In this document: in pieces, positions 1 to 20,029 of the stretch
Position numbering within the stretch: the first letter of the stretch is position 1
Layout: each line of letters begins with the position of its first letter
Virus record (IMG/VR): IMGVR_UViG_2687453449_000004
Coordinates: 1 to 20,029 of that record
Source of the DNA: a virus
Lineage: Duplodnaviria > Heunggongvirae > Uroviricota > Caudoviricetes
Length of the DNA stretch: 20,029 nt
Reading direction: 5' to 3' (one strand)
Translations under genes and position numbers: made by a program
The notes under the pieces: generated by a model
What the model saw: the letters and a program-made list of their open reading frames with translations, nothing else
Database searches by the model: none
Told to the model about the DNA's origin: nothing

Positions 1-405
1 ATGGATCAGGTCGTTGTTTTTCAAAAGATGTTTGAGCAAGTGAGAAAAGAGCAAAACTTCTCCTGGTTTTATTCAGAATTAAAACATCACCGTATTGCAC
101 ATTACATTTATTATCTGGCTACGGATAACATCAGAATTATTACTCACGATGACACGGTTTTGTTATTAAGAGGAACCAGGAACCTGTTAAAAGTTAGTAC
201 GACCAAGAACCCTGCTAAAATAAAAGAGGCCGCATTGCTTCATATTTGCGGAAAATCTACATTTCGGGAATACTGTTCAACACTAGCAGGCGCGGGCGTT
301 TTCCGTTGGGTTACTGATGTTAATCATAACAAACGCAGTTACTACGCCATTGATAATACGCTTTTATATATTGAAGATGTAGAAAATAATAAACCATTAA
401 TCTAG
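1..405 (+). CDS. ycgX: Hypothetical protein, YcgX-like (host gene flanking iraM)
   Basis: 134-aa ORF in the track, AT-rich, directly upstream of iraM in the same orientation. This matches the ycgX-iraM-icdC order I recall for E. coli K-12. The ORF starts at window position 1, so the true 5' end may lie outside. Confidence 0.5.
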   Translation: MDQVVVFQKMFEQVRKEQNFSWFYSELKHHRIAHYIYYLATDNIRIITHDDTVLLLRGTRNLLKVSTTKNPAKIKEAALLHICGKSTFREYCSTLAGAGVFRWVTDVNHNKRSYYAIDNTLLYIEDVENNKPLI

Positions 406-620
406 CTAAAGTTGGATGCTTAAGAAATGCTTCATAATTCAGTAAGGCATTAGCATAATGGGAATAAAAGTACAGAGACTATCCCTATGGATGATAAATA
501 CTGTCCTTTTATTGCTACCCATAAATAATCACCATGCCAATACTATCAAATTGATATTTGAAATGTGATCACTTGACTTTCTATACGTTATTTTATAACG
601 GTTAATATATTTATAAAAAC

Positions 621-642
621 AACGGGTGTGCCATACGCCCGT
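621..642 (-). terminator. Hairpin (AACGGGTGTG..ACGCCCGTT) followed on the minus strand by a T-rich run; copy 1 of a duplicated about 50-bp module
   Basis: Inverted repeat read directly; T-run (revcomp of ATATTTATAAAAAC) follows the stem on the minus strand. About 50 bp, including flanks, closely resemble the module at 1462-1521. Confidence 0.4.
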
Positions 643-1100
643 TTCAATACTTAACGCACATGTGTTTTGGTTTAGTCATCATCCAGTTATATGTATTTTA
701 GCCAGGAACAGGTTAAACCTTTCCTATATAACTCAAAAATTGAAACCTTATTCTCATGTCATGCTTATATTCATTATTATCGTTATATAAAAAGGCAACC
801 ATAATGTTTAGCAAATTGGCACAAAGTAGCATAAAGGCTATGTTTTAATTACAGGATGTTCAGTCATTTGAATGTATAACATTATAGCTAAACAAATCTA
901 AAACGAAGTGAATAATTTATTGTTTTCACTAAATCTCATTTTGTTTAACATCCATTGAGATTCCTTGCTTTAAATTTTGTTTTATATAAGCAATCGTTTT
1001 AATTAATTTATTTTTTGAAGGGGTAATATACTCATATGCAAAATAAAGAAATGAACATCCAAATGAACTATATTAAATACCGTGGGATAAGACATAACAA

Positions 1101-1424
1101 ATGAAGTGGATAGTAATTGACACGATAATTCAACCTTCATGCGGCATATCTTTTTCAGCCATATGGGGTAATATGAAAATGATCATCTGGTATCAATCTA
1201 CTATATTTCTCCCTCCTGGCAGTATATTTACACCGGTTAAATCTGGAATTATCCTTAAAGATAAAGAATATCCTATTACTATTTATAACATCGCACCATT
1301 CAACAAGGATTTATGGAGTCTACTCAAAAGCAGTCAAGAGTGTCCTCCAGGAGAAAGCAAAATAACAAATAAATGTTTGCATAATAGTTGCATTATAAAA
1401 ATATGCCCATATGGGCTCAAGTAA
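1101..1424 (+). CDS. iraM: Anti-adaptor protein IraM (RssB antagonist)
   Basis: 107-aa ORF beginning MKWIVIDT; length and N-terminus match my recollection of IraM. It sits next to the icd 3' remnant as in K-12. A long AT-rich upstream region (406-1100) is consistent with a heavily regulated gene. Confidence 0.75.
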
Positions 1425-1480
1425 AGGGTTTTATATAAATATGCTCGATATGCTATTAATAATACCTACATAAATAAAAC

Positions 1481-1502
1481 AACGGGCGTGTTATACGCCC
1501 GT
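1481..1502 (-). terminator. Rho-independent terminator of the icd transcript (9-bp stem AACGGGCGT/ACGCCCGTT, 4-nt loop, T-run on minus strand)
   Basis: Perfect 9-bp inverted repeat 1481-1489/1494-1502, followed on the minus strand by GTTTTATTTAT, about 25 bp downstream of the icd-fragment stop codon. Confidence 0.6.
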
Positions 1503-1527
1503 TGCAATATTAAACACATGTAGTGAT

Positions 1528-1691
1528 TACATGTTCTTGATGATCGCATCACCAAATTCTGAACATTTCAGCAGTTTAGCGCCTTCCATCAGACGCTCGA
1601 AGTCATAGGTTACGGTCTTCGCATTGATTGCGCCTTCCATACCTTTAACAATCAGGTCTGCGGCTTCAGTCCAGCCCATATGGCGTAACAT
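1528..1691 (-). pseudogene. icdC: icd 3'-terminal fragment (icdC-like), marking the attachment-site junction of the prophage
   Basis: Minus-strand translation [54 protein letters not shown] matches the C-terminus of isocitrate dehydrogenase as I recall it. Homology stops abruptly at about 1691 and the upstream sequence is unrelated and AT-rich. Too short to appear in the ORF track. Confidence 0.85.
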
Positions 1692-1832
1692 TAGATTTAG
1701 AAAATTATTATATCCAATTGAATTAAAACAATTTTATACTTAACGAACATCTAAACTTGTTTTTTTACCTTCACCATAACTCGCTGATTTTGTATAGTTT
1801 ACGTAGCGTTTTGATAACCACTTTATGGCAAA

Positions 1833-2162
1833 ATGGAGGTTCGCTTGAAAACTTCTGTTCTTATCCAGAAATTAATGGAAATTGACAAAACTGTACTATT
1901 CGATGCGGACGTAGTGACCGGTGAGGAATGGTGGCCAACCCCGATTTCTCGTGTTTATCACAATCCGCCACATACTTATGTAGAATTTTAAACAGGTGAA
2001 CAATCTCAAAATGAATCTGACGAGCTAAGTGTTTATAGCGAATTACAAATTTGTGCACATCGAATGATGCAAATTAGAGATTTTGTGCAATCTAACGAGG
2101 GACTGAAACCTGAAAAAATTGTTTCGGAAATAAACATTCAAATTGAACGTATTAAAAAGTGA
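1833..2162 (+). pseudogene. Hypothetical ORF interrupted by one in-frame TAA (1989-1991)
   Basis: Single reading frame gives MEVRLKTSVLIQKLMEIDKTVLFDADVVTGEEWWPTPISRVYHNPPHTYVEF*TGEQSQNESDELSVYSELQICAHRMMQIRDFVQSNEGLKPEKIVSEINIQIERIKK*. Both halves look protein-like and the frame is maintained across the stop. Confidence 0.3.
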
Positions 2163-2227
2163 TGGCTGAAGCAATTCTGAAACACTAATTCATATTCTAT
2201 GTTATTCATACCAATGTGGATTTAACT

Positions 2228-2261
2228 CCCACCAACCCACCAACCCACCAACCCACCAACC
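2228..2261. repeat. Tandem octanucleotide repeat (CCCACCAA)x4 plus CC
   Basis: Read directly: cccaccaacccaccaacccaccaacccaccaacc, about 260 bp upstream of the restriction gene start. Confidence 0.9.
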
Positions 2262-2517
2262 ATGATTGGGCGGCGCAAGAAACTAATATCAATTAAAACA
2301 GCAAGTTATCAGTCTAAACAGAACACCAACGGGATGGAGGAGAGACAAAAAATATCCAATGAAACCGTAGCGCGTCAGCATTCAAAAGCGGGGTTTCTTA
2401 TTTTTACTTCACCAGTAACAAATACACTGTATCATAACTACATAAAAATGATTGTTCTGACTCAGATGAATTTCTTACTCTTGTAGAATGTCACTTAATG
2501 TTATTTATAGGTAAACA

Positions 2518-4407
2518 ATGAAATCCGAAACGCTAACCATCCAGCAAATTTTCCAAAATCAACGACAATATCGTGTTCCATTCTATCAACGTGCCTACGT
2601 ATGGACGCAACGAAACCAATGGTCAGCTTTGCTGGAGGATATCTTCGAAAAAGCACAGAGCCGACTTTCGGGAACAAAACCAACCCCTCATTTCCTCGGC
2701 GCGGTGGTGCTGGAACCTCAACTCAAAAACAGCTTGTTAGGTGTAGATACCATACATATTATTGACGGCCAGCAACGTTTAACCACTCTTCAATATATTC
2801 TGGCATCCATTCGATTATCATTGCGTGCTACAGGCCTTTCTGAACTGGAAGGGTTAGTATTGACTTGCTTGAAAAATACAAACGAAGCAACGATGAGAAA
2901 TAAAAAGGTAGAATGCTTCAAACTGTGGCCAACTTTTCGAGATCAAACTCATTTTATTCAAAGTCTTAATGTTGATAATATTGACGATCTCCGTAATGTA
3001 TTTTCTGATAGCTTCACGCAACATGGTACGTTACGTAAACATTTCAACCACCCGCCGTCACTAGAGGCATTATGGTTTTTTACTGAAGCCTTTATAAAAT
3101 GGATTAAAATAGAAAACCGCTCACCACAAGAAAATGCTGTAGCACTAATTGAGGCTGTCTTGACGGATCTGAAACTGGTAAGCATATTTCTCGAAGCTGA
3201 AGATGATGCCCAAATAATTTTTGAAACATTAAATGGGCGAGGAGCGGAACTTCATGCAACGGATCTTATTCGCAACTATATCTTTATGTGCGCTGAGCAT
3301 GAAAATATTAATACTATTGAATTATATGAAAATGAGTGGAAGATCTTTGAAGATAAATACTGGTCGGAAAAGCAACGCCGTGGACGTATTAATAAACCAC
3401 GCATGGAGTGGCTTGTACATGCGACATTGCAATCAGAAAGGCAGCGTGAAATTGATCTGTCTCGCCTTTACAATGAGTATCGTGATTATGTAAGTAAGGA
3501 CTTGCCTTCACAACGAGCAGATCTGCAAGTAAAGCGCCTCAAACAATATGCATCACAATATAAAGAATTGGTTGGTGGTTTTGGCACAACCCCAATCTCA
3601 CACTTTGGACATCGCATCGCAGCCTATGATGTGACGACACTCTATCCGCTTGCTTTGTTCATTTCGATAGCTAACATCGCCGATGATGAGAAAGCAGCCA
3701 TGTATAATGATCTTGTCTCCTACGTAGTACGAAGATCCGTATGTGGCCTGACGCCAAAGAATTACAACAATGTATTTATGAATGTATTGCGACACTTGTC
3801 TAAAACGGAAATTTCCAGTATTGAGTTACGTAATATCCTCAATAGCTTAAATGGCGAAGCCTCACGTTGGCCTGGGGACTCAGAATTTCTCAACGCTTGC
3901 ATCAATGCTCCACTTTATCCTGGCAGGCTCGACGCACCGAAAATGCGCTCAATGTTAACGGAACTTGAAAGAGAACTTTGTCGCCAAGTGAAGACAGAAA
4001 AGCCTGATGTTCCAAATCTTTCTAATCTCGATATCGATCATCTTATGCCTCAAAGTTGGTATTCCTGTTGGCCTCTCGAAAATGGTCATATGGTGACAAA
4101 TTCAGATGCTACGGTAATGAACCAAATTGTTCTGTCTGGAACCGATCTTACCCCTGAACAGCTACTGGTAAGGAAACGGCAACAAGCGATAGCTACGTTG
4201 GGAAATCTAACTTTGCTTAACCTTAGCGTAAACCGTTCCGTTCAGAATGCTGTATTTCTGAAAAAACGTGATGCTCTCATCGTCCACACCAATCTACGAC
4301 TGAACATACCACTTATACTTAAGGATAAATGGGATGAGAGTGAAATACTGGAGCGAGGTAAAAAGTTGGGGGAAATTGCATTGAAAGTATGGCCAAAATA
4401 CGATTAA
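2518..4407 (+). CDS. GmrSD-family type IV restriction endonuclease (N-terminal DUF262/ParB-like NTPase domain, C-terminal DUF1524 His-Me finger nuclease domain)
   Basis: 629-aa ORF. N-terminal motifs FYQRAYVW and IIDGQQRLTTLQ (DGQQR signature) and C-terminal DIDHLMPQS ... LGNLTLLNLSVNRSVQN fit the DUF262+DUF1524 fusion architecture. AT-rich relative to the prophage structural genes. Confidence 0.8.
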   Translation: MKSETLTIQQIFQNQRQYRVPFYQRAYVWTQRNQWSALLEDIFEKAQSRLSGTKPTPHFLGAVVLEPQLKNSLLGVDTIHIIDGQQRLTTLQYILASIRLSLRATGLSELEGLVLTCLKNTNEATMRNKKVECFKLWPTFRDQTHFIQSLNVDNIDDLRNVFSDSFTQHGTLRKHFNHPPSLEALWFFTEAFIKWIKIENRSPQENAVALIEAVLTDLKLVSIFLEAEDDAQIIFETLNGRGAELHATDLIRNYIFMCAEHENINTIELYENEWKIFEDKYWSEKQRRGRINKPRMEWLVHATLQSERQREIDLSRLYNEYRDYVSKDLPSQRADLQVKRLKQYASQYKELVGGFGTTPISHFGHRIAAYDVTTLYPLALFISIANIADDEKAAMYNDLVSYVVRRSVCGLTPKNYNNVFMNVLRHLSKTEISSIELRNILNSLNGEASRWPGDSEFLNACINAPLYPGRLDAPKMRSMLTELERELCRQVKTEKPDVPNLSNLDIDHLMPQSWYSCWPLENGHMVTNSDATVMNQIVLSGTDLTPEQLLVRKRQQAIATLGNLTLLNLSVNRSVQNAVFLKKRDALIVHTNLRLNIPLILKDKWDESEILERGKKLGEIALKVWPKYD

Positions 4408-4429
4408 TGCAATTAATAAAATGATTATA

Positions 4430-4453
4430 GCGGCCTTACATTAGTAAGGCCGC
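4430..4453. terminator. Perfect 10-bp stem-loop (GCGGCCTTAC-ATTA-GTAAGGCCGC) between the convergent restriction gene and pin remnant
   Basis: Inverted repeat read directly, 23 bp after the restriction-gene stop codon. Confidence 0.6.
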
Positions 4454-4632
4454 AACTCACTATTAAATCCTTTAATTTGCATCAAGAACAGCACTGTCAG
4501 CCCTAGGCTCTCGGACTTTGTACCGCTTATCTTGTCTTCAAAAATCAGCTCGCATCCTGCACAGTTCAACGCATTACGTTGTAGATCTGTGTTCTGGTCA
4601 TTTATTGATACGCGTACATAGCCAATAAGCAT
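4441..4632 (-). pseudogene. pinE: Pin/Gin/Hin-family serine DNA invertase, N-terminal remnant only (about 41 conserved residues)
   Basis: Minus-strand translation from ATG at 4632: MLIGYVRVSINDQNTDLQRNALNCAGCELIFEDKISGTKSE, the canonical invertase N-terminus including the catalytic Ser. It then diverges (SLGLTVLFLMQIKGFNSELRPY*) and stops. A full invertase would be about 190 aa. Track ORF 4441..4668 includes an upstream extension. Confidence 0.8.
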
Positions 4633-4658
4633 AGTGGATCCCTCTGACAAAAGCAGGA

Positions 4659-4994
4659 ATGATGCCATTTGCTCGTTATTTCTGCATTTTCATAAACGTT
4701 GGTTTGGGAGAAGGTGCTAACTGGGTTATGTTACCTAGAGGAATGATAATTCAGCGTGTTTATCTTGGATTTCCTGTCGGCACCAATGTAAGACACATAA
4801 CTTTCCCCCGGTCGTTTACAACAACGAACTATTCCATCTCAATTAACTGGAATGATATCGGTACTGTAACAACTGAAACACAATCTCCAGCAAATGTGGC
4901 GGTTGTTCATCAAACAAAATCATTAACAGGGGCCAGCATCTGGCAGGCAGGTCCCGGGGGATTTAATGTGGACATTATAGCGGTGGGGTATTGA
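4659..4994 (+). CDS. Tail-fibre C-terminal cassette lacking an N-terminal constant region (StfE-like silent alternative)
   Basis: 111-aa ORF that begins at or inside the pix-like site and ends 1 bp before a tfa gene. No fibre N-terminus and no obvious RBS. Placement matches the silent stf fragment in Din-type inversion systems. Confidence 0.5.
   Translation: MMPFARYFCIFINVGLGEGANWVMLPRGMIIQRVYLGFPVGTNVRHITFPRSFTTTNYSISINWNDIGTVTTETQSPANVAVVHQTKSLTGASIWQAGPGGFNVDIIAVGY
4687..4712. promoter_or_regulatory. pix/cix-like 26-bp invertase crossover site
   Basis: ttttcataaacgttggtttgggagaa; the reverse complement TTCTCCCAAACCAACGTTTATGAAAA has the two-half-site architecture (TTnTCnnAAACC) of Din-family sites. 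It lies about 55 bp from the pin start codon at the edge of the tail-fibre cassette. Confidence 0.6.
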
Positions 4995-4995
4995 T

Positions 4996-5487
4996 ATGTA
5001 CGTATGGAGCGCTAAAGCAAATGGCTTTTTCCCCATATCGGAGAAAGAAAAATTTGAGGCATCAGGTCTGTGGCCTGATGATGGTGTAATAGTCAGTGAG
5101 GAAGAACATAAAAAGTTATTTATGGATATTCCACCAGGAAAACAGATTGGAACACTGAATGGAAAACCAGCACTGATAGATATTCCTCAGCCGACCAAAA
5201 AGGAATTAATAGCTATTGCTGAAGTTAAAAAATCCCAATTACGGGAAAAAGCTGACAGTGAAATATCCTGGCGTCAGGATGCTGTTGATGCTGATATCGC
5301 AACTGATGAAGAAGCTACAACTCTCACCCAATGGAAGAAATACCGTGTGCTGCTGATGCGTGTTGATACGTCAACAGCACCCGATATTGAATGGCCTACG
5401 CCTCCGGCAGTTCAGGCCAGATGGCATCCGGCGCGGTGCTGGTATCTGTTGCCGTCACCGCGTCAATGTAATCCAGCACAGCGTTAA
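4996..5487 (+). CDS. Tail fibre assembly protein (TfaE-like), with an unusual C-terminal extension
   Basis: 163 aa; contains the conserved Tfa C-terminal peptide VDTSTAPDIEWPTPPA, then continues about 25 codons into the antisense of the convergent tfa gene. Confidence 0.7.
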   Translation: MYVWSAKANGFFPISEKEKFEASGLWPDDGVIVSEEEHKKLFMDIPPGKQIGTLNGKPALIDIPQPTKKELIAIAEVKKSQLREKADSEISWRQDAVDADIATDEEATTLTQWKKYRVLLMRVDTSTAPDIEWPTPPAVQARWHPARCWYLLPSPRQCNPAQR

Positions 5488-5998
5488 GGCGGGTTGTTTC
5501 TGCCTGCGTCAGTTTACGTCCGGCCTGCAATTTCAGCTGAATCAGACTGATGGAAGCCATTGCAGTATCAATCAGTGACTGGCGCTGTGCTTCTGCTGCA
5601 TCTACTGCGGCGCTATGCTGTGCTTCGGTATCCGTCACCCATTTCTCACCATCCCATTTATCGTATGGCGTTAACGGGGCGATAGTGGTTGTATTATCAG
5701 GGTAATCACCCGGAGCTGTGATTTCTTTTGATTCTCCTGTTTCGGTGCTAAAGACGATTTCACCGCGATGGTCTGGCACATATTCCCATGAGTTAAAATC
5801 TACAGATCGGCAGATTGCATAACCAGCTTTGTATGTGCCAGGGGCATCTAAACAGGAATATGCAGGGATACCGACACCCACAGCAAGATATTCAGTTGAT
5901 GTGGAAATATATTCCCGTGTTTCGCCATCATAGTTATAGACGGTAATATTCCCCGCCTTTGTAGCAATAAACTCGCTATTTAATACAGCGTTATCCAT
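5396..5998 (-). CDS. Tail fibre assembly protein (TfaP-like)
   Basis: 200 aa, N-terminus [33 protein letters not shown]-terminus TDTSTAPDAIWPELPEA, both typical of the lambda/Mu Tfa family. Start abuts the upstream fibre gene stop (coupled). Confidence 0.8.
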   Translation of the reverse strand: MDNAVLNSEFIATKAGNITVYNYDGETREYISTSTEYLAVGVGIPAYSCLDAPGTYKAGYAICRSVDFNSWEYVPDHRGEIVFSTETGESKEITAPGDYPDNTTTIAPLTPYDKWDGEKWVTDTEAQHSAAVDAAEAQRQSLIDTAMASISLIQLKLQAGRKLTQAETTRLNAVLDYIDAVTATDTSTAPDAIWPELPEA

Positions 5999-6939
5999 TA
6001 TGCAGCCCTCACGATATAGTTAAATGCAATATTCCGTGGACGGGTTTCATTTATCCCATATGCTGTTGTTCTCTGATTCCCGACAAAATATCCATTTGGA
6101 TTAGAAGATACAGAATAATCATCAAAATCAAGTGGGCTATCAGCACCCGGCGTCAGGCTTGCAATATATCCTCTTCCCATAACTTCTGATGCTGGTATTT
6201 CTTTTGTACGATAATCACTGACTCTGAAGAGCTGCCCTTGGTGGGTGTGTGATTCCACTCCTCCATTCTGAAGACTTAGCAAGGCACGTACAGCATCAAT
6301 ACCACGCCCGTCATCCCAGCCCCTAATAAACTCACCACGTAAATCAGGCAATTTATTTGTCGGATATTTAAAAATTACGTAGGTATGCGAAGGGCAGAGT
6401 TTGTTAAGCACACATTCGACGACGGTGTCGCCCCAGATACGCAGCGCGGAATCACAGGGATCGCCACATGTCATCCAGGTGCTGTTGGTGGCGGCTGGCA
6501 TGTTGACCTGCCAGTAATACCGCCATTCCGGCGCATTCACCGCGTCAGTACAGGACGATGAGCAGGTGAACGTGCTTTTGTCGTATCGCGTGATGGTGGC
6601 GTCTGGTCTGCCCAGGGCAGCAAGCTGTGCAAGGTAAAAATCCTCATTGATGCCGCCCGCCAGGTTAACCTTCGCATCCAGTCGTTGCTGACGCTGGCGA
6701 AGGGTCTGTGTTCCTGCGGGAATACATTCATCCGGCAGGCCGCACAGACGCTCCCAGCGATTTATCAGTTCGGTGGTGGTGCGCGGATCCAGCTCCCGCA
6801 TCAGGGCATCCGCACGCTGATGAACGCGGGTTAATGACTGTGCCGCACCGGCAATCGCCGGATCGCTGGCTGACCACGCCGGACCGGGCGGCAGCAGTGC
6901 CGACAACAGACGGATGTAATCATCGTTTGTCACGTCCAT
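5998..6939 (-). CDS. Mu gp48-like (DUF2313/YmfQ-like) tail protein continuous with a tail-fibre C-terminal tip domain
   Basis: 313-aa uninterrupted ORF. N-terminal about 195 aa ([22 protein letters not shown]...) resembles DUF2313 proteins. C-terminal part carries the tail-fibre motif [19 protein letters not shown]. Overlaps the upstream J-like gene by 10 nt. Confidence 0.7.
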
Positions 6940-18693: not shown

Positions 18694-19590
18694 ATGCAGT
18701 TGTATGCCTTACGTGTGTTAATGAGACCGCGCGATCCAGACCTCTTTTCGAAAGGAACTGTTCAGAAAGATATCTCTCATTTTGAAAATGCTATGGTTAT
18801 CGCTGCAAAAAATTTACACATGACGTCATCAACACCTTCCGTTCATAAGAAAACTAGTTACACCCTGAAATTGAGCATAAAACCTACTGATGGTGTTATG
18901 GCTGGAGTCATATCAAAGCTGCAAAAGATTAAAGGACATGATAAAGACTTTCGAGAGTACGATGTAGACAACTATCCACCTATCGTATGGATTTGGGACA
19001 AAGTAGAGCAGGTGTTACTGGTTGAGAGGAAAACCGCTGTTTTCAAGGATGCGCAACAAGTTGCTAAAGCGTTTGAAGATCTAGCCAATAACGACTATTT
19101 GGCTCAGTTAGGACTTAGAATATTTATAGAGCCTTGTCTTGAAATGGAAGATTTTTGGTCAGAATACCATAGGCTTCAATTTATCGACAAAGTCAGCTTT
19201 ACGCTGATTACTCCGAATATCTTCGGAAGCAGTAAGCAAGCGTTAACCAATGATTTACGGAAGCTTGAAAAAGATACCAATGCAAATACTGTGACCACTA
19301 TTTTTGAAAACAAAGATGGCAATTTGAAACTCAAAGGTTCTCATTGGGCTGAGACTCTTGTTGACTGGGTCAAAGATGGTGGCGGGTCATGGTTGATTAA
19401 AGGACGTAAGACACTCAAGTCAAAATCTACTACGGTATCCAGTAATCAGACAGCCAAAATCGTGCTGATCGAAGGTGAGATATCAGAAATTGAACTTGAT
19501 GGCTACTCAGCAAATGATATTAAAGAGATCATAGCATTACATCAAAACAGGTATACGTTCAAAAATGCAAAATCTAACTGTCTGGATTAA
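18694..19590 (+). CDS. Hypothetical cytoplasmic protein (298 aa), first gene of an int-adjacent cargo operon
   Basis: AGGAG RBS; AT-rich; no Walker A, HEXXH, HD or nucleotidyltransferase motifs seen, so not Lit. Confidence 0.55.
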   Translation: MQLYALRVLMRPRDPDLFSKGTVQKDISHFENAMVIAAKNLHMTSSTPSVHKKTSYTLKLSIKPTDGVMAGVISKLQKIKGHDKDFREYDVDNYPPIVWIWDKVEQVLLVERKTAVFKDAQQVAKAFEDLANNDYLAQLGLRIFIEPCLEMEDFWSEYHRLQFIDKVSFTLITPNIFGSSKQALTNDLRKLEKDTNANTVTTIFENKDGNLKLKGSHWAETLVDWVKDGGGSWLIKGRKTLKSKSTTVSSNQTAKIVLIEGEISEIELDGYSANDIKEIIALHQNRYTFKNAKSNCLD

Positions 19591-20029
19591 AGCTATAGCT
19601 ACCTTCTTTTTGTGCTTAGCATTAGCATCGACTGATAAAACCATTTATACCTTACTTGAGCAGGCTTCTGCTGGAGTAATAGGTTCAATACTTGGAGGTA
19701 TTGCCGCAGGTATCTCCGTTATCTTCGGAATTTTGGCTGTCATTAATAAGGGCGAGAAAAGCACAGACTTTACGGACTATTTAGATAGTTTAGAATTAGA
19801 TTTGAAATTACTGGTCATGTGTCTGGCAGTAACAATCTTCCTTCCCTATTTACGTAATTATGACATACCACTAGTAAATTATCCTCAGCACGAATTTATC
19901 CCTTCTAAAGGCAAGCTATTTACTGCTTTAGAACTTTTTGCTATCGTGCTATCTCTTAACCTCATTGCAGAAGTGATTAGCTGCATGATTTTAGTGGTTA
20001 AAAAAAGTTTCAAAATTGAATCAAAGTGA
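19565..20029 (+). CDS. Small integral membrane protein (at least 4 predicted TM helices), 3' end outside window
   Basis: Hydrophobic stretches WIKAIATFFLCLALAS, AGVIGSILGGIAAGISVIFGILAVI, LKLLVMCLAVTIFLPYL and LFTALELFAIVLSLNLIAEVISCMILVV; start overlaps the upstream gene by 26 nt; no stop before the window end. Confidence 0.55.
   Translation: MQNLTVWIKAIATFFLCLALASTDKTIYTLLEQASAGVIGSILGGIAAGISVIFGILAVINKGEKSTDFTDYLDSLELDLKLLVMCLAVTIFLPYLRNYDIPLVNYPQHEFIPSKGKLFTALELFAIVLSLNLIAEVISCMILVVKKSFKIESK

Follow-up and report, generated by a model that had tools for sequence, protein, structure and literature searches.

The 20,029-nucleotide stretch of viral DNA analysed here (the window) carries a gmrSD gene that, with a probability of roughly 0.9, represents an allele of prototype GmrSD, which a decayed e14/SfII-like prophage in icd bears as a moron at its tail-fibre end, and whose module arose by cassette replacement in an ancestral phage. 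GmrSD has been known since 2007 and is biochemically characterised, the prototype reportedly being the E. coli CT596 enzyme of Bair & Black (2007). The enzyme itself is already known and, under any reading, is not novel.

Domain organisation and relatives of the gmrSD product

2518-4407, plus strand: gmrSD, encoding a 629-aa single-chain restriction endonuclease of type IV (modification-dependent), assigned from its domains, its motifs and 99.36% identity to CT596 GmrSD and Eco94GmrSD

The open reading frame is intact, begins with ATG and was described in an earlier note, made from the DNA letters, as a 629-aa fusion of DUF262 (DGQQR) and DUF1524 (DHxxP...N...N), a description borne out by Pfam, PADLOC and the motifs. 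In the profile search that the note had proposed, both domains matched well above their cutoffs: GmrSD_N (PF03235; DUF262, a ParB/Srx-like NTPase domain) covers residues 8-256 (E 2e-33, 116.6 bits against a Pfam cutoff of 33.2) and, beyond a helical linker, GmrSD_C (PF07510; DUF1524, His-Me-finger nuclease) covers residues 451-619 (E 4e-19, 69.4 bits against 23). The PADLOC type IV model PDLC03655 matches the protein from end to end (629/629, 1516 bits). The features required of the family are present, namely a DUF262 domain with DGQQR (residues 83-87) and a DUF1524 domain with all three motifs of the GmrSD_C set, (D/E)HxxP, LGNLxLL...N and NxxFxxK (PMC4619093), which here take the form of DHLMP at 507-511, N522, N528 and N535, LGNLTLLNLSVN and NAVFLKKR. 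No NCBIfam model was found for the protein. A sequence search of all PDB chains (phmmer, E up to 10) returned a single match, to the N-terminal domain of the DUF262 protein 9jfl_B (E 2e-7), and no solved structure of the window GmrSD clade.

Full-length, ungapped alignment with the reference proteins (CT596, Eco94 and UTI89 sequences from PMC4437046, Suppl. Fig. S1) places the window protein four substitutions in 629 from CT596 GmrSD (H201R, A266T, V435I, Q611L) and four from Eco94GmrSD (H201R, A266T, H316R, V435I), or 99.36% identity in each case. The earlier assignment to a GmrSD-type enzyme was therefore right and, if anything, understated: judged by its sequence, the gene is a near-identical copy, an allele, of prototype GmrSD itself. 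With both enzymes it shares the length, DGQQR, the ExE-x4-ExK motif (271-280) and D507-H508-N522. Mutagenesis of Eco94GmrSD identified D507, H508, N522 and E271/E273 as required (PMC4437046); each residue whose mutation killed activity is kept at the same position in the window protein, in which D507, H508, N522, E271, E273, E278 and K280 are all conserved. None of the three published enzymes has R201, T266 or I435. The UTI89 enzyme is more distant (46 differing positions, 92.7% identity), and at 43 of those 46 the window protein carries the CT596 residue.

The combination of DUF262 and DUF1524 is also that of SspE and BrxU, which would fit a protein that is part of a larger system, as a phosphorothioate-sensing partner of sspABCD or as a BREX accessory, instead of a stand-alone enzyme. 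PADLOC SspE models do match, weakly (E 1e-14 to 1e-10) and over the N-terminal ~100 residues only; neither a full-length SspE-model match nor linkage to sspABCD was found in the window or the carrier loci. The "GmrSD/SspE-type" label of the earlier note thus holds for domain architecture, but the likeness to SspE ends there. Neither the window nor any of the carriers examined contains ssp, dnd or BREX genes, no BREX locus was found around the gene, whose neighbours are prophage genes, the best PADLOC model is that of a stand-alone type IV enzyme matched at full length, and a near-identical reference enzyme is active alone when cloned (PMC4437046), all of which makes membership of a larger system extremely improbable. 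BrxU, a BREX-linked GmrSD homologue of solved structure, has the same two domains and a nucleotide-stimulated cleavage of modified-cytosine DNA (PMC12707154, PMC12409352) but is encoded within a BREX locus on a plasmid and has 5mC DNA as a further substrate; a phmmer search of the PDB with the window protein (E up to 10) did not find it, the two sequences being too diverged.

Genetic context of gmrSD

The features that flank gmrSD in the window are as follows.

1527-1701, minus strand: icdC (displaced icd 3′ end) and attR junction, from the K-12 match and the pseudo-icd that PGAP calls at the corresponding position of strain E4
1833-2188, plus strand: pseudogene of a 113-aa hypothetical gene, from nucleotide and protein comparison with intact copies (L005/L006:6145-6486)
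2212-2352, no strand: fossil ssrA-type attachment region, from homology to the UTI89 ssrA 3′ end and flank
2297-2517, plus strand: upstream region travelling with gmrSD in all carriers, from homology among icd, ssrA and pao/LysR carriers
4430-4453, no strand: perfect 10-bp hairpin (RNA fold -20.6 kcal/mol, z = -5.8, 0/200 shuffles as stable)
4481-4632, minus strand: Δpin, a Pin/Gin-type DNA invertase gene cut down to its 5′ ~130-150 nt, from the K-12 match, alignment A1 and PGAP
4694-6366, no strand: invertible segment with tail-fibre C-termini and assembly genes, from blastn against E4

As had been proposed, gmrSD lies between an icd remnant (~1527-1694, minus strand) and a pin remnant (~4481-4632, minus strand), and locus comparison confirms that it occupies the slot equivalent to that of K-12 mcrA, between pin and the icd attR. 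The order in the window is ycgX-iraM-icdC, gmrSD, pin remnant and tail-fibre genes, against pinE, mcrA and icdC in K-12 e14. Window 1-1701 matches K-12 (L002:19108-17406) at 95.5%, homology stopping at 1701, 8 bp into the prophage, and window 4497-4714 matches L002:15821-15604 at 92%. The non-homologous segment (1702-4496, 2.8 kb) replaces L002:15822-17405 (1.6 kb), which comprises mcrA and the 3′ 419 nt, or three quarters, of pinE. Transcription of gmrSD runs inward from the attR side, opposite to that of mcrA, and between gmrSD and attR lie the pseudogene and the fossil ssrA-type att, both absent from K-12. EcoKMcrA resembles the window enzyme in its position and as a modification-dependent HNH-type nuclease encoded by a stand-alone single gene, but is unrelated in sequence and N-terminal domain, targets 5mC (C5mCGG) and has an intact pinE alongside. 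The window element is 99.8-100% identical to the 40-kb prophage of strain E4 and 85-96% identical to K-12 e14 in the shared parts; rather than an altered e14, it is thus another phage of the family.

The pseudogene is interrupted by a TAA nonsense codon at 1989-1991, where relatives read GAA, as well as by a 2-bp indel toward its 3′ end; the intact gene adjoins attR in icd-integrated relatives, and its product has no match in Pfam, PADLOC or PHROGs. The region read as a fossil att combines a degenerate version of the ~30 nt that end ssrA, interrupted at 2228-2261 by four tandem copies of the 8-nt repeat CCCACCAA, with, after it, ~100 nt showing homology to the flank after ssrA. The UTI89 ssrA 3′ end and flank match window 2253-2352 at 74%, the corresponding regions of L005, L006, L009 and L010 at 93-95% and that of L004 at 61%; the UTI89 prophage is itself bounded by a ~188-nt direct repeat of the ssrA 3′ end and flank, and a K-12-like genome has this flank, too, at the distal end of its CP4-57. 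A tRNA/tmRNA scan of the window called none, so the ssrA-like piece is a fragment only, and Rfam gave no family at gathering score over the whole window. The 152 nt after ssrA had been considered as a phage arm and were rejected as such, being native chromosomal flank present in 4165 genomes. Corrected in this way, the interpretation as a fossil ssrA-type att stands, on the homology described.

Homology among the icd, ssrA and pao/LysR carriers begins at window 2297-2307, and the segment from there to gmrSD presumably holds its 5′ UTR and its promoter. A promoter/terminator scan of 1600-4800 picked out sigma-70-like hexamers (TTCACC-16-TATCAT) at 2408-2435, but with a site number not above that of shuffled sequence; no promoter is therefore claimed, and expression of gmrSD is assumed. 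The hairpin, 23 nt past the gmrSD stop codon and kept in all carriers (alignment A1), has no plus-strand T-run and was thus missed by the terminator scan; placed between gmrSD and Δpin, which converge, it likely ends transcription or stabilises the RNA. The 3′ three quarters of Δpin are gone, with the same breakpoint in all gmrSD carriers examined, and PGAP labels it a recombinase family protein with missing C-terminus in strain E4 and other carriers. The adjoining tail-fibre segment is inverted relative to the otherwise 99.9%-identical E4 prophage; Pfam places Gp53-like_C and Caudo_TAP on ORFs 4659-4994 and 4996-5487. GC content is 0.39-0.44 in the cargo as against 0.57-0.60 in the tail genes.

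Origin of the gmrSD module

CT596 and Eco94 GmrSD are likewise prophage-borne, beside a phage invertase and tail-fibre assembly genes, an arrangement like that of the window copy; for the CT596 gmrS/gmrD, PMC4619093, citing Bair & Black 2007, already names these neighbours. The window copy differs in its icd/e14-type integration site, which is not described for CT596 or Eco94 GmrSD in the published accounts examined, and in residing in a prophage reduced by ~20 kb. The UTI89 gene, UTI89_C2960, belongs to the same prophage family and has the same upstream region and Δpin junction, but adjoins ssrA, from which it is separated by a GIY-YIG gene, a DinI-like pseudogene and two hypothetical genes.

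The earlier note had envisaged an in-place exchange of one nuclease for another; in such a scenario, an e14 resident at icd would have traded mcrA for gmrSD, gene for gene, at a locus-specific hotspot. Consistent with such an exchange, the outer flanks are those of K-12 e14 (at one boundary icdC and 8 bp more, at the opposite one the initial ~136 nt of pinE), and other icd-integrated elements hold further defence genes in the slot; the equivalence of the slot and the variety of its cargo can be retained from that proposal. The replaced segment, however, spans 2.8 kb, took most of pin with it, runs opposite to mcrA and is separated from the icd attR by the fossil ssrA-type att, in an element far closer to the E4 prophage than to e14. 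Moreover, related prophages beside ssrA, paoD/LysR, ykgJ and tRNA-Pro share the gmrSD-hairpin-Δpin junction, which brings the number of its chromosomal sites, icd included, to at least five; at three att sites (icd, ssrA and paoD/LysR) the upstream boundary is shared as well, and at two more the junction. An identical junction at several sites argues that the module was built once in the phage lineage, not swapped at icd, and that it was moved by recombination and integration-module swaps. Gene-for-gene exchange in place is accordingly disfavoured and has only a slim chance of being correct.

Under the preferred reading of cassette replacement within the phage lineage, the gmrSD cassette (upstream region, open reading frame and hairpin) would have taken the place of the 3′ portion of pin, together with any sequence farther on, next to the ssrA-type att site of an ancestral phage. 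Through recombination between related prophages and swaps of integration modules, the module would then have reached icd and the other sites, while K-12 e14 would have retained an intact pinE with mcrA in the equivalent position. We infer the direction and order of these events (first cargo, att module swaps) from a handful of loci.

Proposed function of the window allele

GmrSD of the prototype type has been purified and mutagenised and shows ATP-stimulated cutting of glc-5hmC and 5hmC DNA (PMC4437046); its biochemistry and phage phenotypes are described in PMC4437046 and PMC12409352 and reviewed in PMC12707154. By analogy with this near-identical enzyme, the N-terminal DUF262 (DGQQR) domain of the window protein would bind NTP, with nucleotide boosting activity, and the DUF1524 HNH-type domain (D507-H508, N522) would cut double-stranded DNA containing 5hmC or glucosyl-5hmC, preferentially where two modified cytosines, one on each strand, are separated by 17-23 bp. 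Host DNA without the modification would mostly be left uncut, and this specificity for modified DNA suggests that gmrSD protects the lysogen against T-even phages. The reference enzyme restricts T4 lacking ip1 >10^6-fold, and IPI* is known to inhibit the near-identical enzymes (PMC4437046); T4 would evade restriction through the injected inhibitor IPI*, to which the CT596-like window allele is expected to be sensitive. The activity and specificity of this exact allele, its IPI* sensitivity and its expression from the 220-bp upstream region are thus predicted by analogy.

A GmrSD fold could also have been kept in an allele that is unexpressed, inactive or shifted in specificity and that does not restrict T4 in the manner of CT596 or Eco94 GmrSD. 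The UTI89 enzyme, 93% identical, is inactive in vitro, restricts a different T-even set and is reportedly insensitive to IPI* (PMC4437046), from which it follows that small sequence changes can matter in this clade; R201, T266 and I435 set the window protein apart from the published enzymes, promoter-like sites upstream are no commoner than in shuffles, and overexpression of GmrSD is toxic (PMC4437046), so that low-activity alleles could be selected. Against this, the substitutions number just four, none at a residue of proven importance, and the positions that distinguish UTI89 almost all carry the CT596 residue. The window gene is also intact and 100% identical to the strain E4 copy despite the loss of 20 kb from its prophage, and the reading frame is intact and identical across dozens of genomes in which neighbouring genes have decayed, which argues for purifying selection. 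A silent or altered allele therefore appears improbable, and a functional, CT596-like GmrSD is preferred.

The prophage-end cargo slot and its distribution

Among the ~10 loci surveyed, a sample only, the slot between pin/tail fibres and att holds mcrA (K-12), gmrSD, a type II REase with a C5-MTase and GIY-YIG, or three hypothetical genes. Varied, defence-rich cargo thus lies between conserved flanks in this sample, and the prophage-end hotspot of the earlier note is to that extent a fair description; the slot is a variable defence-cargo region and an ordinary case of prophage defence-cargo swapping. It resembles the defence hotspots of temperate phages (P2/P4, the lambda rex/sieB morons) in its conserved phage bounds and varied anti-phage genes, but its bounds are the pin invertase gene and the att region. 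The literature search found no description of a pin-att cargo slot and no paper on gmrSD/gmrD at the e14 or icd locus. A gmrSD gene of any allele is present in 304 of 5426 complete E. coli genomes (5.6%), and ~1% carry it with the element at icd; among INPHARED phage genomes none has gmrSD, matches being limited to the pin part of the query.

At the integrase end of the window (18694-20029), where K-12 has lit, is a gene pair encoding a 298-aa soluble protein and a 154-aa protein with four TM segments. Searches of Pfam, PADLOC, PHROGs and NCBIfam gave no match to either. The two genes are found together again in the variable region of a Klebsiella P2-like prophage, and they resemble lambda RexA/RexB in size and architecture only. 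The pair may be the clearest candidate here for an uncharacterised anti-phage system. That both ends of e14/SfII-like prophages (the pin-att slot and the int-proximal lit slot) are cassette-exchange sites holding uncharacterised anti-phage systems is a tentative suggestion, more doubtful than probable.

As a discovery the gmrSD locus matters little, and its practical value is modest: carrier strains are expected to withstand T-even phages not equipped with a matching IPI-type inhibitor, which bears on the choice of therapy phages. The fossil ssrA-type att indicates that integration modules are swapped around a fixed cargo, and the locus provides a clean worked example of prophage-end defence cargo that was swapped and then kept through prophage decay.

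The GmrSD Enzyme

The features of the window on which this account draws are as follows.

1833-2188 (+), pseudogene of a 113-aa hypothetical gene, disrupted by a nonsense codon (TAA, 1989-1991) and, near its end, by a 2-bp indel
~2212-2352, fossil ssrA-type attachment region: a degenerate 3′ end of ssrA followed by ~100 nt of post-ssrA flank
2228-2261, 8-nt tandem repeat CCCACCAA, ~4 copies, replacing part of the ssrA-like core
2518-4407 (+), gmrSD, an intact ORF of 629 codons with an ATG start
4430-4453, perfect 10-bp hairpin 3′ of the gmrSD stop codon (-20.6 kcal/mol, z -5.8)
4694-6366, invertible tail-fibre segment (1.67 kb), flipped relative to the 99.9%-identical prophage of strain E4
18694-19590 (+), 298-aa soluble-protein ORF beside the integrase gene
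19565-20029 (+), 154-aa ORF overlapping the preceding one, with four hydrophobic segments

The earlier note described the gmrSD product as a 629-aa fusion of DUF262 (DGQQR) and DUF1524, and Pfam, PADLOC and the motifs all agree. Both domains were matched far over the curated cutoffs (PF03235, GmrSD_N, residues 8-256, E 2e-33; PF07510, GmrSD_C, residues 451-619, E 4e-19), and PADLOC model PDLC03655 (“type IV methyl-directed restriction enzyme”), a profile essentially derived from GmrSD itself, aligns over residues 1-629 of its 629 positions (1516 bits). DGQQR lies at 83-87 and DHLMP at 507-511, with asparagines N522, N528 and N535. These matches and motifs rule out a chance ORF, and by every sequence criterion the protein belongs to the GmrSD family.

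The protein was compared with the resequenced, single-chain prototype from CT596, Eco94GmrSD and the UTI89 enzyme, using the sequences printed in Supplementary Fig. S1 of He et al. (2015; PMC4437046). The four sequences, each of 629 aa, give a gap-free alignment. The window protein is 99.36% identical both to CT596 GmrSD (four differences: H201R, A266T, V435I, Q611L) and to Eco94GmrSD (four differences: H201R, A266T, H316R, V435I), and 92.7% identical to the UTI89 enzyme. It retains D507, H508, N522, E271/E273 and E278/K280; the single mutants D507A, H508A and N522A and the E271/E273 double mutant are inactive (PMC4437046). Since identity to the prototype is this high and the mutagenised residues are conserved, the gene encodes the prototype enzyme of the family, beyond mere membership, and the GmrSD-type assignment proposed earlier was correct and understated. 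At 43 of the 46 positions that differ from the UTI89 enzyme the window protein has the CT596 residue, from which CT596-like specificity and sensitivity to IPI*, the injected T4 inhibitor, would be expected. An identical protein is found on 351 contigs of a public collection, within a 90% cluster of 1185 members, and of 5426 complete E. coli genomes 304 carry gmrSD, the alleles falling into three groups (≥99%, n = 56; ~97%, n = 29; ~93%, n = 218).

The mechanism is known from near-identical enzymes. In the presence of Mg2+ or Mn2+, Eco94GmrSD cuts T4 DNA (glc-5hmC) and T4gt DNA (5hmC) with strong stimulation by ATP and leaves unmodified DNA uncut under normal conditions; its cleavage sites fit 5hmC-N17-23-G, cut near the middle (PMC4437046). 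It restricts T4 and T4gt weakly because IPI* inhibits it, T4 Δip1 being restricted >10^6-fold, and its overexpression is toxic to recA cells (PMC4437046). The N-terminal domain has a ParB/Srx fold with NTPase potential, and the C-terminal one is a nuclease of the HNH/His-Me-finger type (PMC4619093); the homologue BrxU passes from dimers to monomers upon nucleotide binding (PMC12409352). The window allele would thus be predicted to act as an Eco94GmrSD/CT596-type enzyme, with ATP-stimulated cleavage of glc-5hmC and 5hmC DNA. The related SspE and BrxU situations were considered and rejected: matches to SspE models are partial and weak, the PDB search returned no match to BrxU, and no ssp or BREX genes were found beside gmrSD.

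The Prophage and Its Integrase End

The window DNA is from E. coli, its first 4.7 kb being 99.8% identical to strain E4. Compared with the ~40-kb E4 prophage, the element is 99.8-100% identical with four differences: internal deletions have removed tail genes (6.8 kb) and a 13.5-kb stretch with the head, terminase, lysis and late-control genes, Q and a TIR-domain gene among them (junctions at ~10733 and ~11717); it keeps a DUF2303 gene at the position of the E4 IS1; and its tail-fibre segment is flipped. Because the adjacent pin is truncated in both of these 99.9%-identical prophages, a different invertase must have flipped the segment recently, acting in trans. Other gmrSD carriers also differ in its orientation (UTI89 versus 14EC001). 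In E4 the TIR-domain protein gene (L007:465-1280) lies between holin and antiterminator Q; this position is a third cargo site in the phage, and the deletion has removed it from the window.

The element is a defective e14-like remnant that retains cargo at both ends. An intact gmrSD beside a dead 113-aa gene and a dead pin is the usual pattern for a grounded prophage that holds on to useful cargo.

At the integrase end, the 298-aa and 154-aa genes occupy the position of lit, ymfE and ymfD in K-12 e14; in the UTI89 gmrSD prophage, the int-proximal lit position (L020:5114-6984) holds genes for a 199-aa hypothetical, a 108-aa STAS-like domain protein and a 303-aa hypothetical. Searches of Pfam, PADLOC, PHROGs and NCBIfam gave no match for either window protein. 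The 298-aa family is restricted to Enterobacteriaceae, and the pair, found in 32 of 5426 E. coli genomes, recurs as a unit next to a PIN_12 gene in the variable region of a Klebsiella P2-like prophage and next to an AAA_21 ATPase gene on a metagenome contig. It resembles RexA/RexB in size and architecture only, with no sequence similarity and with weak fold matches from a poor model. The pair is a plausible candidate for an exclusion system that has yet to be described.

Layout of the Locus and Origin of the Module

The E4 annotation (PGAP) gives the order ycgX, ymgL, ymgK, iraM, pseudo-icd, DUF262 protein, truncated recombinase and tail-fibre genes, and K-12 has pinE, mcrA, icdC and iraM, in agreement with the proposal that gmrSD lies between the icd and pin remnants in the mcrA slot. 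Breakpoints were taken from blastn against the K-12 locus (L002). The match over window 1-1701 extends past icdC by 8 bp, nothing in K-12 corresponds to 1702-4496 in this comparison, and homology resumes at 4497-4714, which covers the region upstream of pinE and the first ~136 nt of that gene; in K-12 the intervening segment (L002:15822-17405) comprises the 3′ 419 nt of pinE, mcrA and 233 bp. Transcription of gmrSD leads from the attR side toward the convergent pin stump, whereas mcrA is transcribed toward attR, co-directionally with pinE. This orientation, the hairpin and the AT-rich cargo (GC 0.39-0.44, against 0.57-0.60 in the adjoining tail genes) depart from a gene-for-gene exchange with mcrA.

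A unit made up of gmrSD with ~220 bp upstream of it, the hairpin and pin broken at the identical nucleotide is shared with related Mu-like-tail (SfII-like/e14-like) prophages at chromosomal sites besides icd:

UTI89, adjoining ssrA (93% allele)
14EC001, adjoining paoD, in a truncated LysR gene (97% allele)
strain T2, near ykgJ
EM22-18-53, at tRNA-Pro beside yejM

Because the junction is identical at five sites, the module probably arose once and then spread along with the phage tail-fibre end. He et al. placed the gene in an SfII-like prophage, directly downstream of its tail-fibre genes (PMC4437046), and the neighbours of CT596 gmrSD are a phage invertase and tail-fibre assembly genes (Bair and Black, 2007, as cited in Machnicka et al., PMC4619093).

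Cargo Slot and Attachment Sites

The position between pin/tail fibres and att was surveyed in a sample of ~10 loci.

K-12: mcrA
Window and other carriers: gmrSD
L005 and L006 (icd), L010 (LysR/pao, intact pinE) and L009: type II REase, C5-methyltransferase and LEM-3-like GIY-YIG protein
UTI89: gmrSD, with a GIY-YIG gene and a DinI-like pseudogene stacked beside it
Ec-042-T20-MAC (L008:5618-7342, pin remnant to ssrA): three hypothetical genes (70, 114 and 343 aa)

A variable defence-cargo slot is supported by this variety, which includes alternative cargo in the icd-integrated L005 and L006. The hotspot part of the earlier reading thus stands, but an in-place swap at icd does not describe the locus best, given the same junction at five sites, and breakpoints and orientation depart from a gene-for-gene swap. 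The entire K-12 pinE-3′/mcrA/attR segment is present in 329 genomes, many of them K-12 derivatives, and the window's icd-proximal 595 bp in 59.

Between gmrSD and attR lie the 113-aa pseudogene and the fossil ssrA-type region. The 113-aa gene, which has no family match, is intact adjoining attR in other icd-integrated elements (L005/L006:6145-6486). The UTI89 prophage is flanked by a ~188-nt direct repeat, comprising the last 35 nt of ssrA and the 152 nt that natively follow it, and copies with 93-95% identity occur within relatives integrated at icd (L005, L006) and at LysR/pao (L009, L010), where they invariably mark the outer border of the cargo. The window copy (2253-2352) is 74% identical, its ssrA part interrupted by four CCCACCAA repeats; match lengths differ here among otherwise identical genomes (595 versus 611 nt, etc.), which suggests that repeat copy number is variable. 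No fossil ssrA-type att was found in K-12 e14. On the simplest interpretation, the slot for cargo first abutted an ssrA-type att, and the icd-specific integration module would have been added outside it later; a fossil att inside an icd prophage, with close copies at cargo edges in relatives, implies that integration modules have been swapped around a fixed cargo slot.

No description of gmrSD at the e14/icd position was found in the literature searched. Overall, the gmrSD finding is already known, and its position at e14/icd is a small, annotation-level addition to well-known biology.
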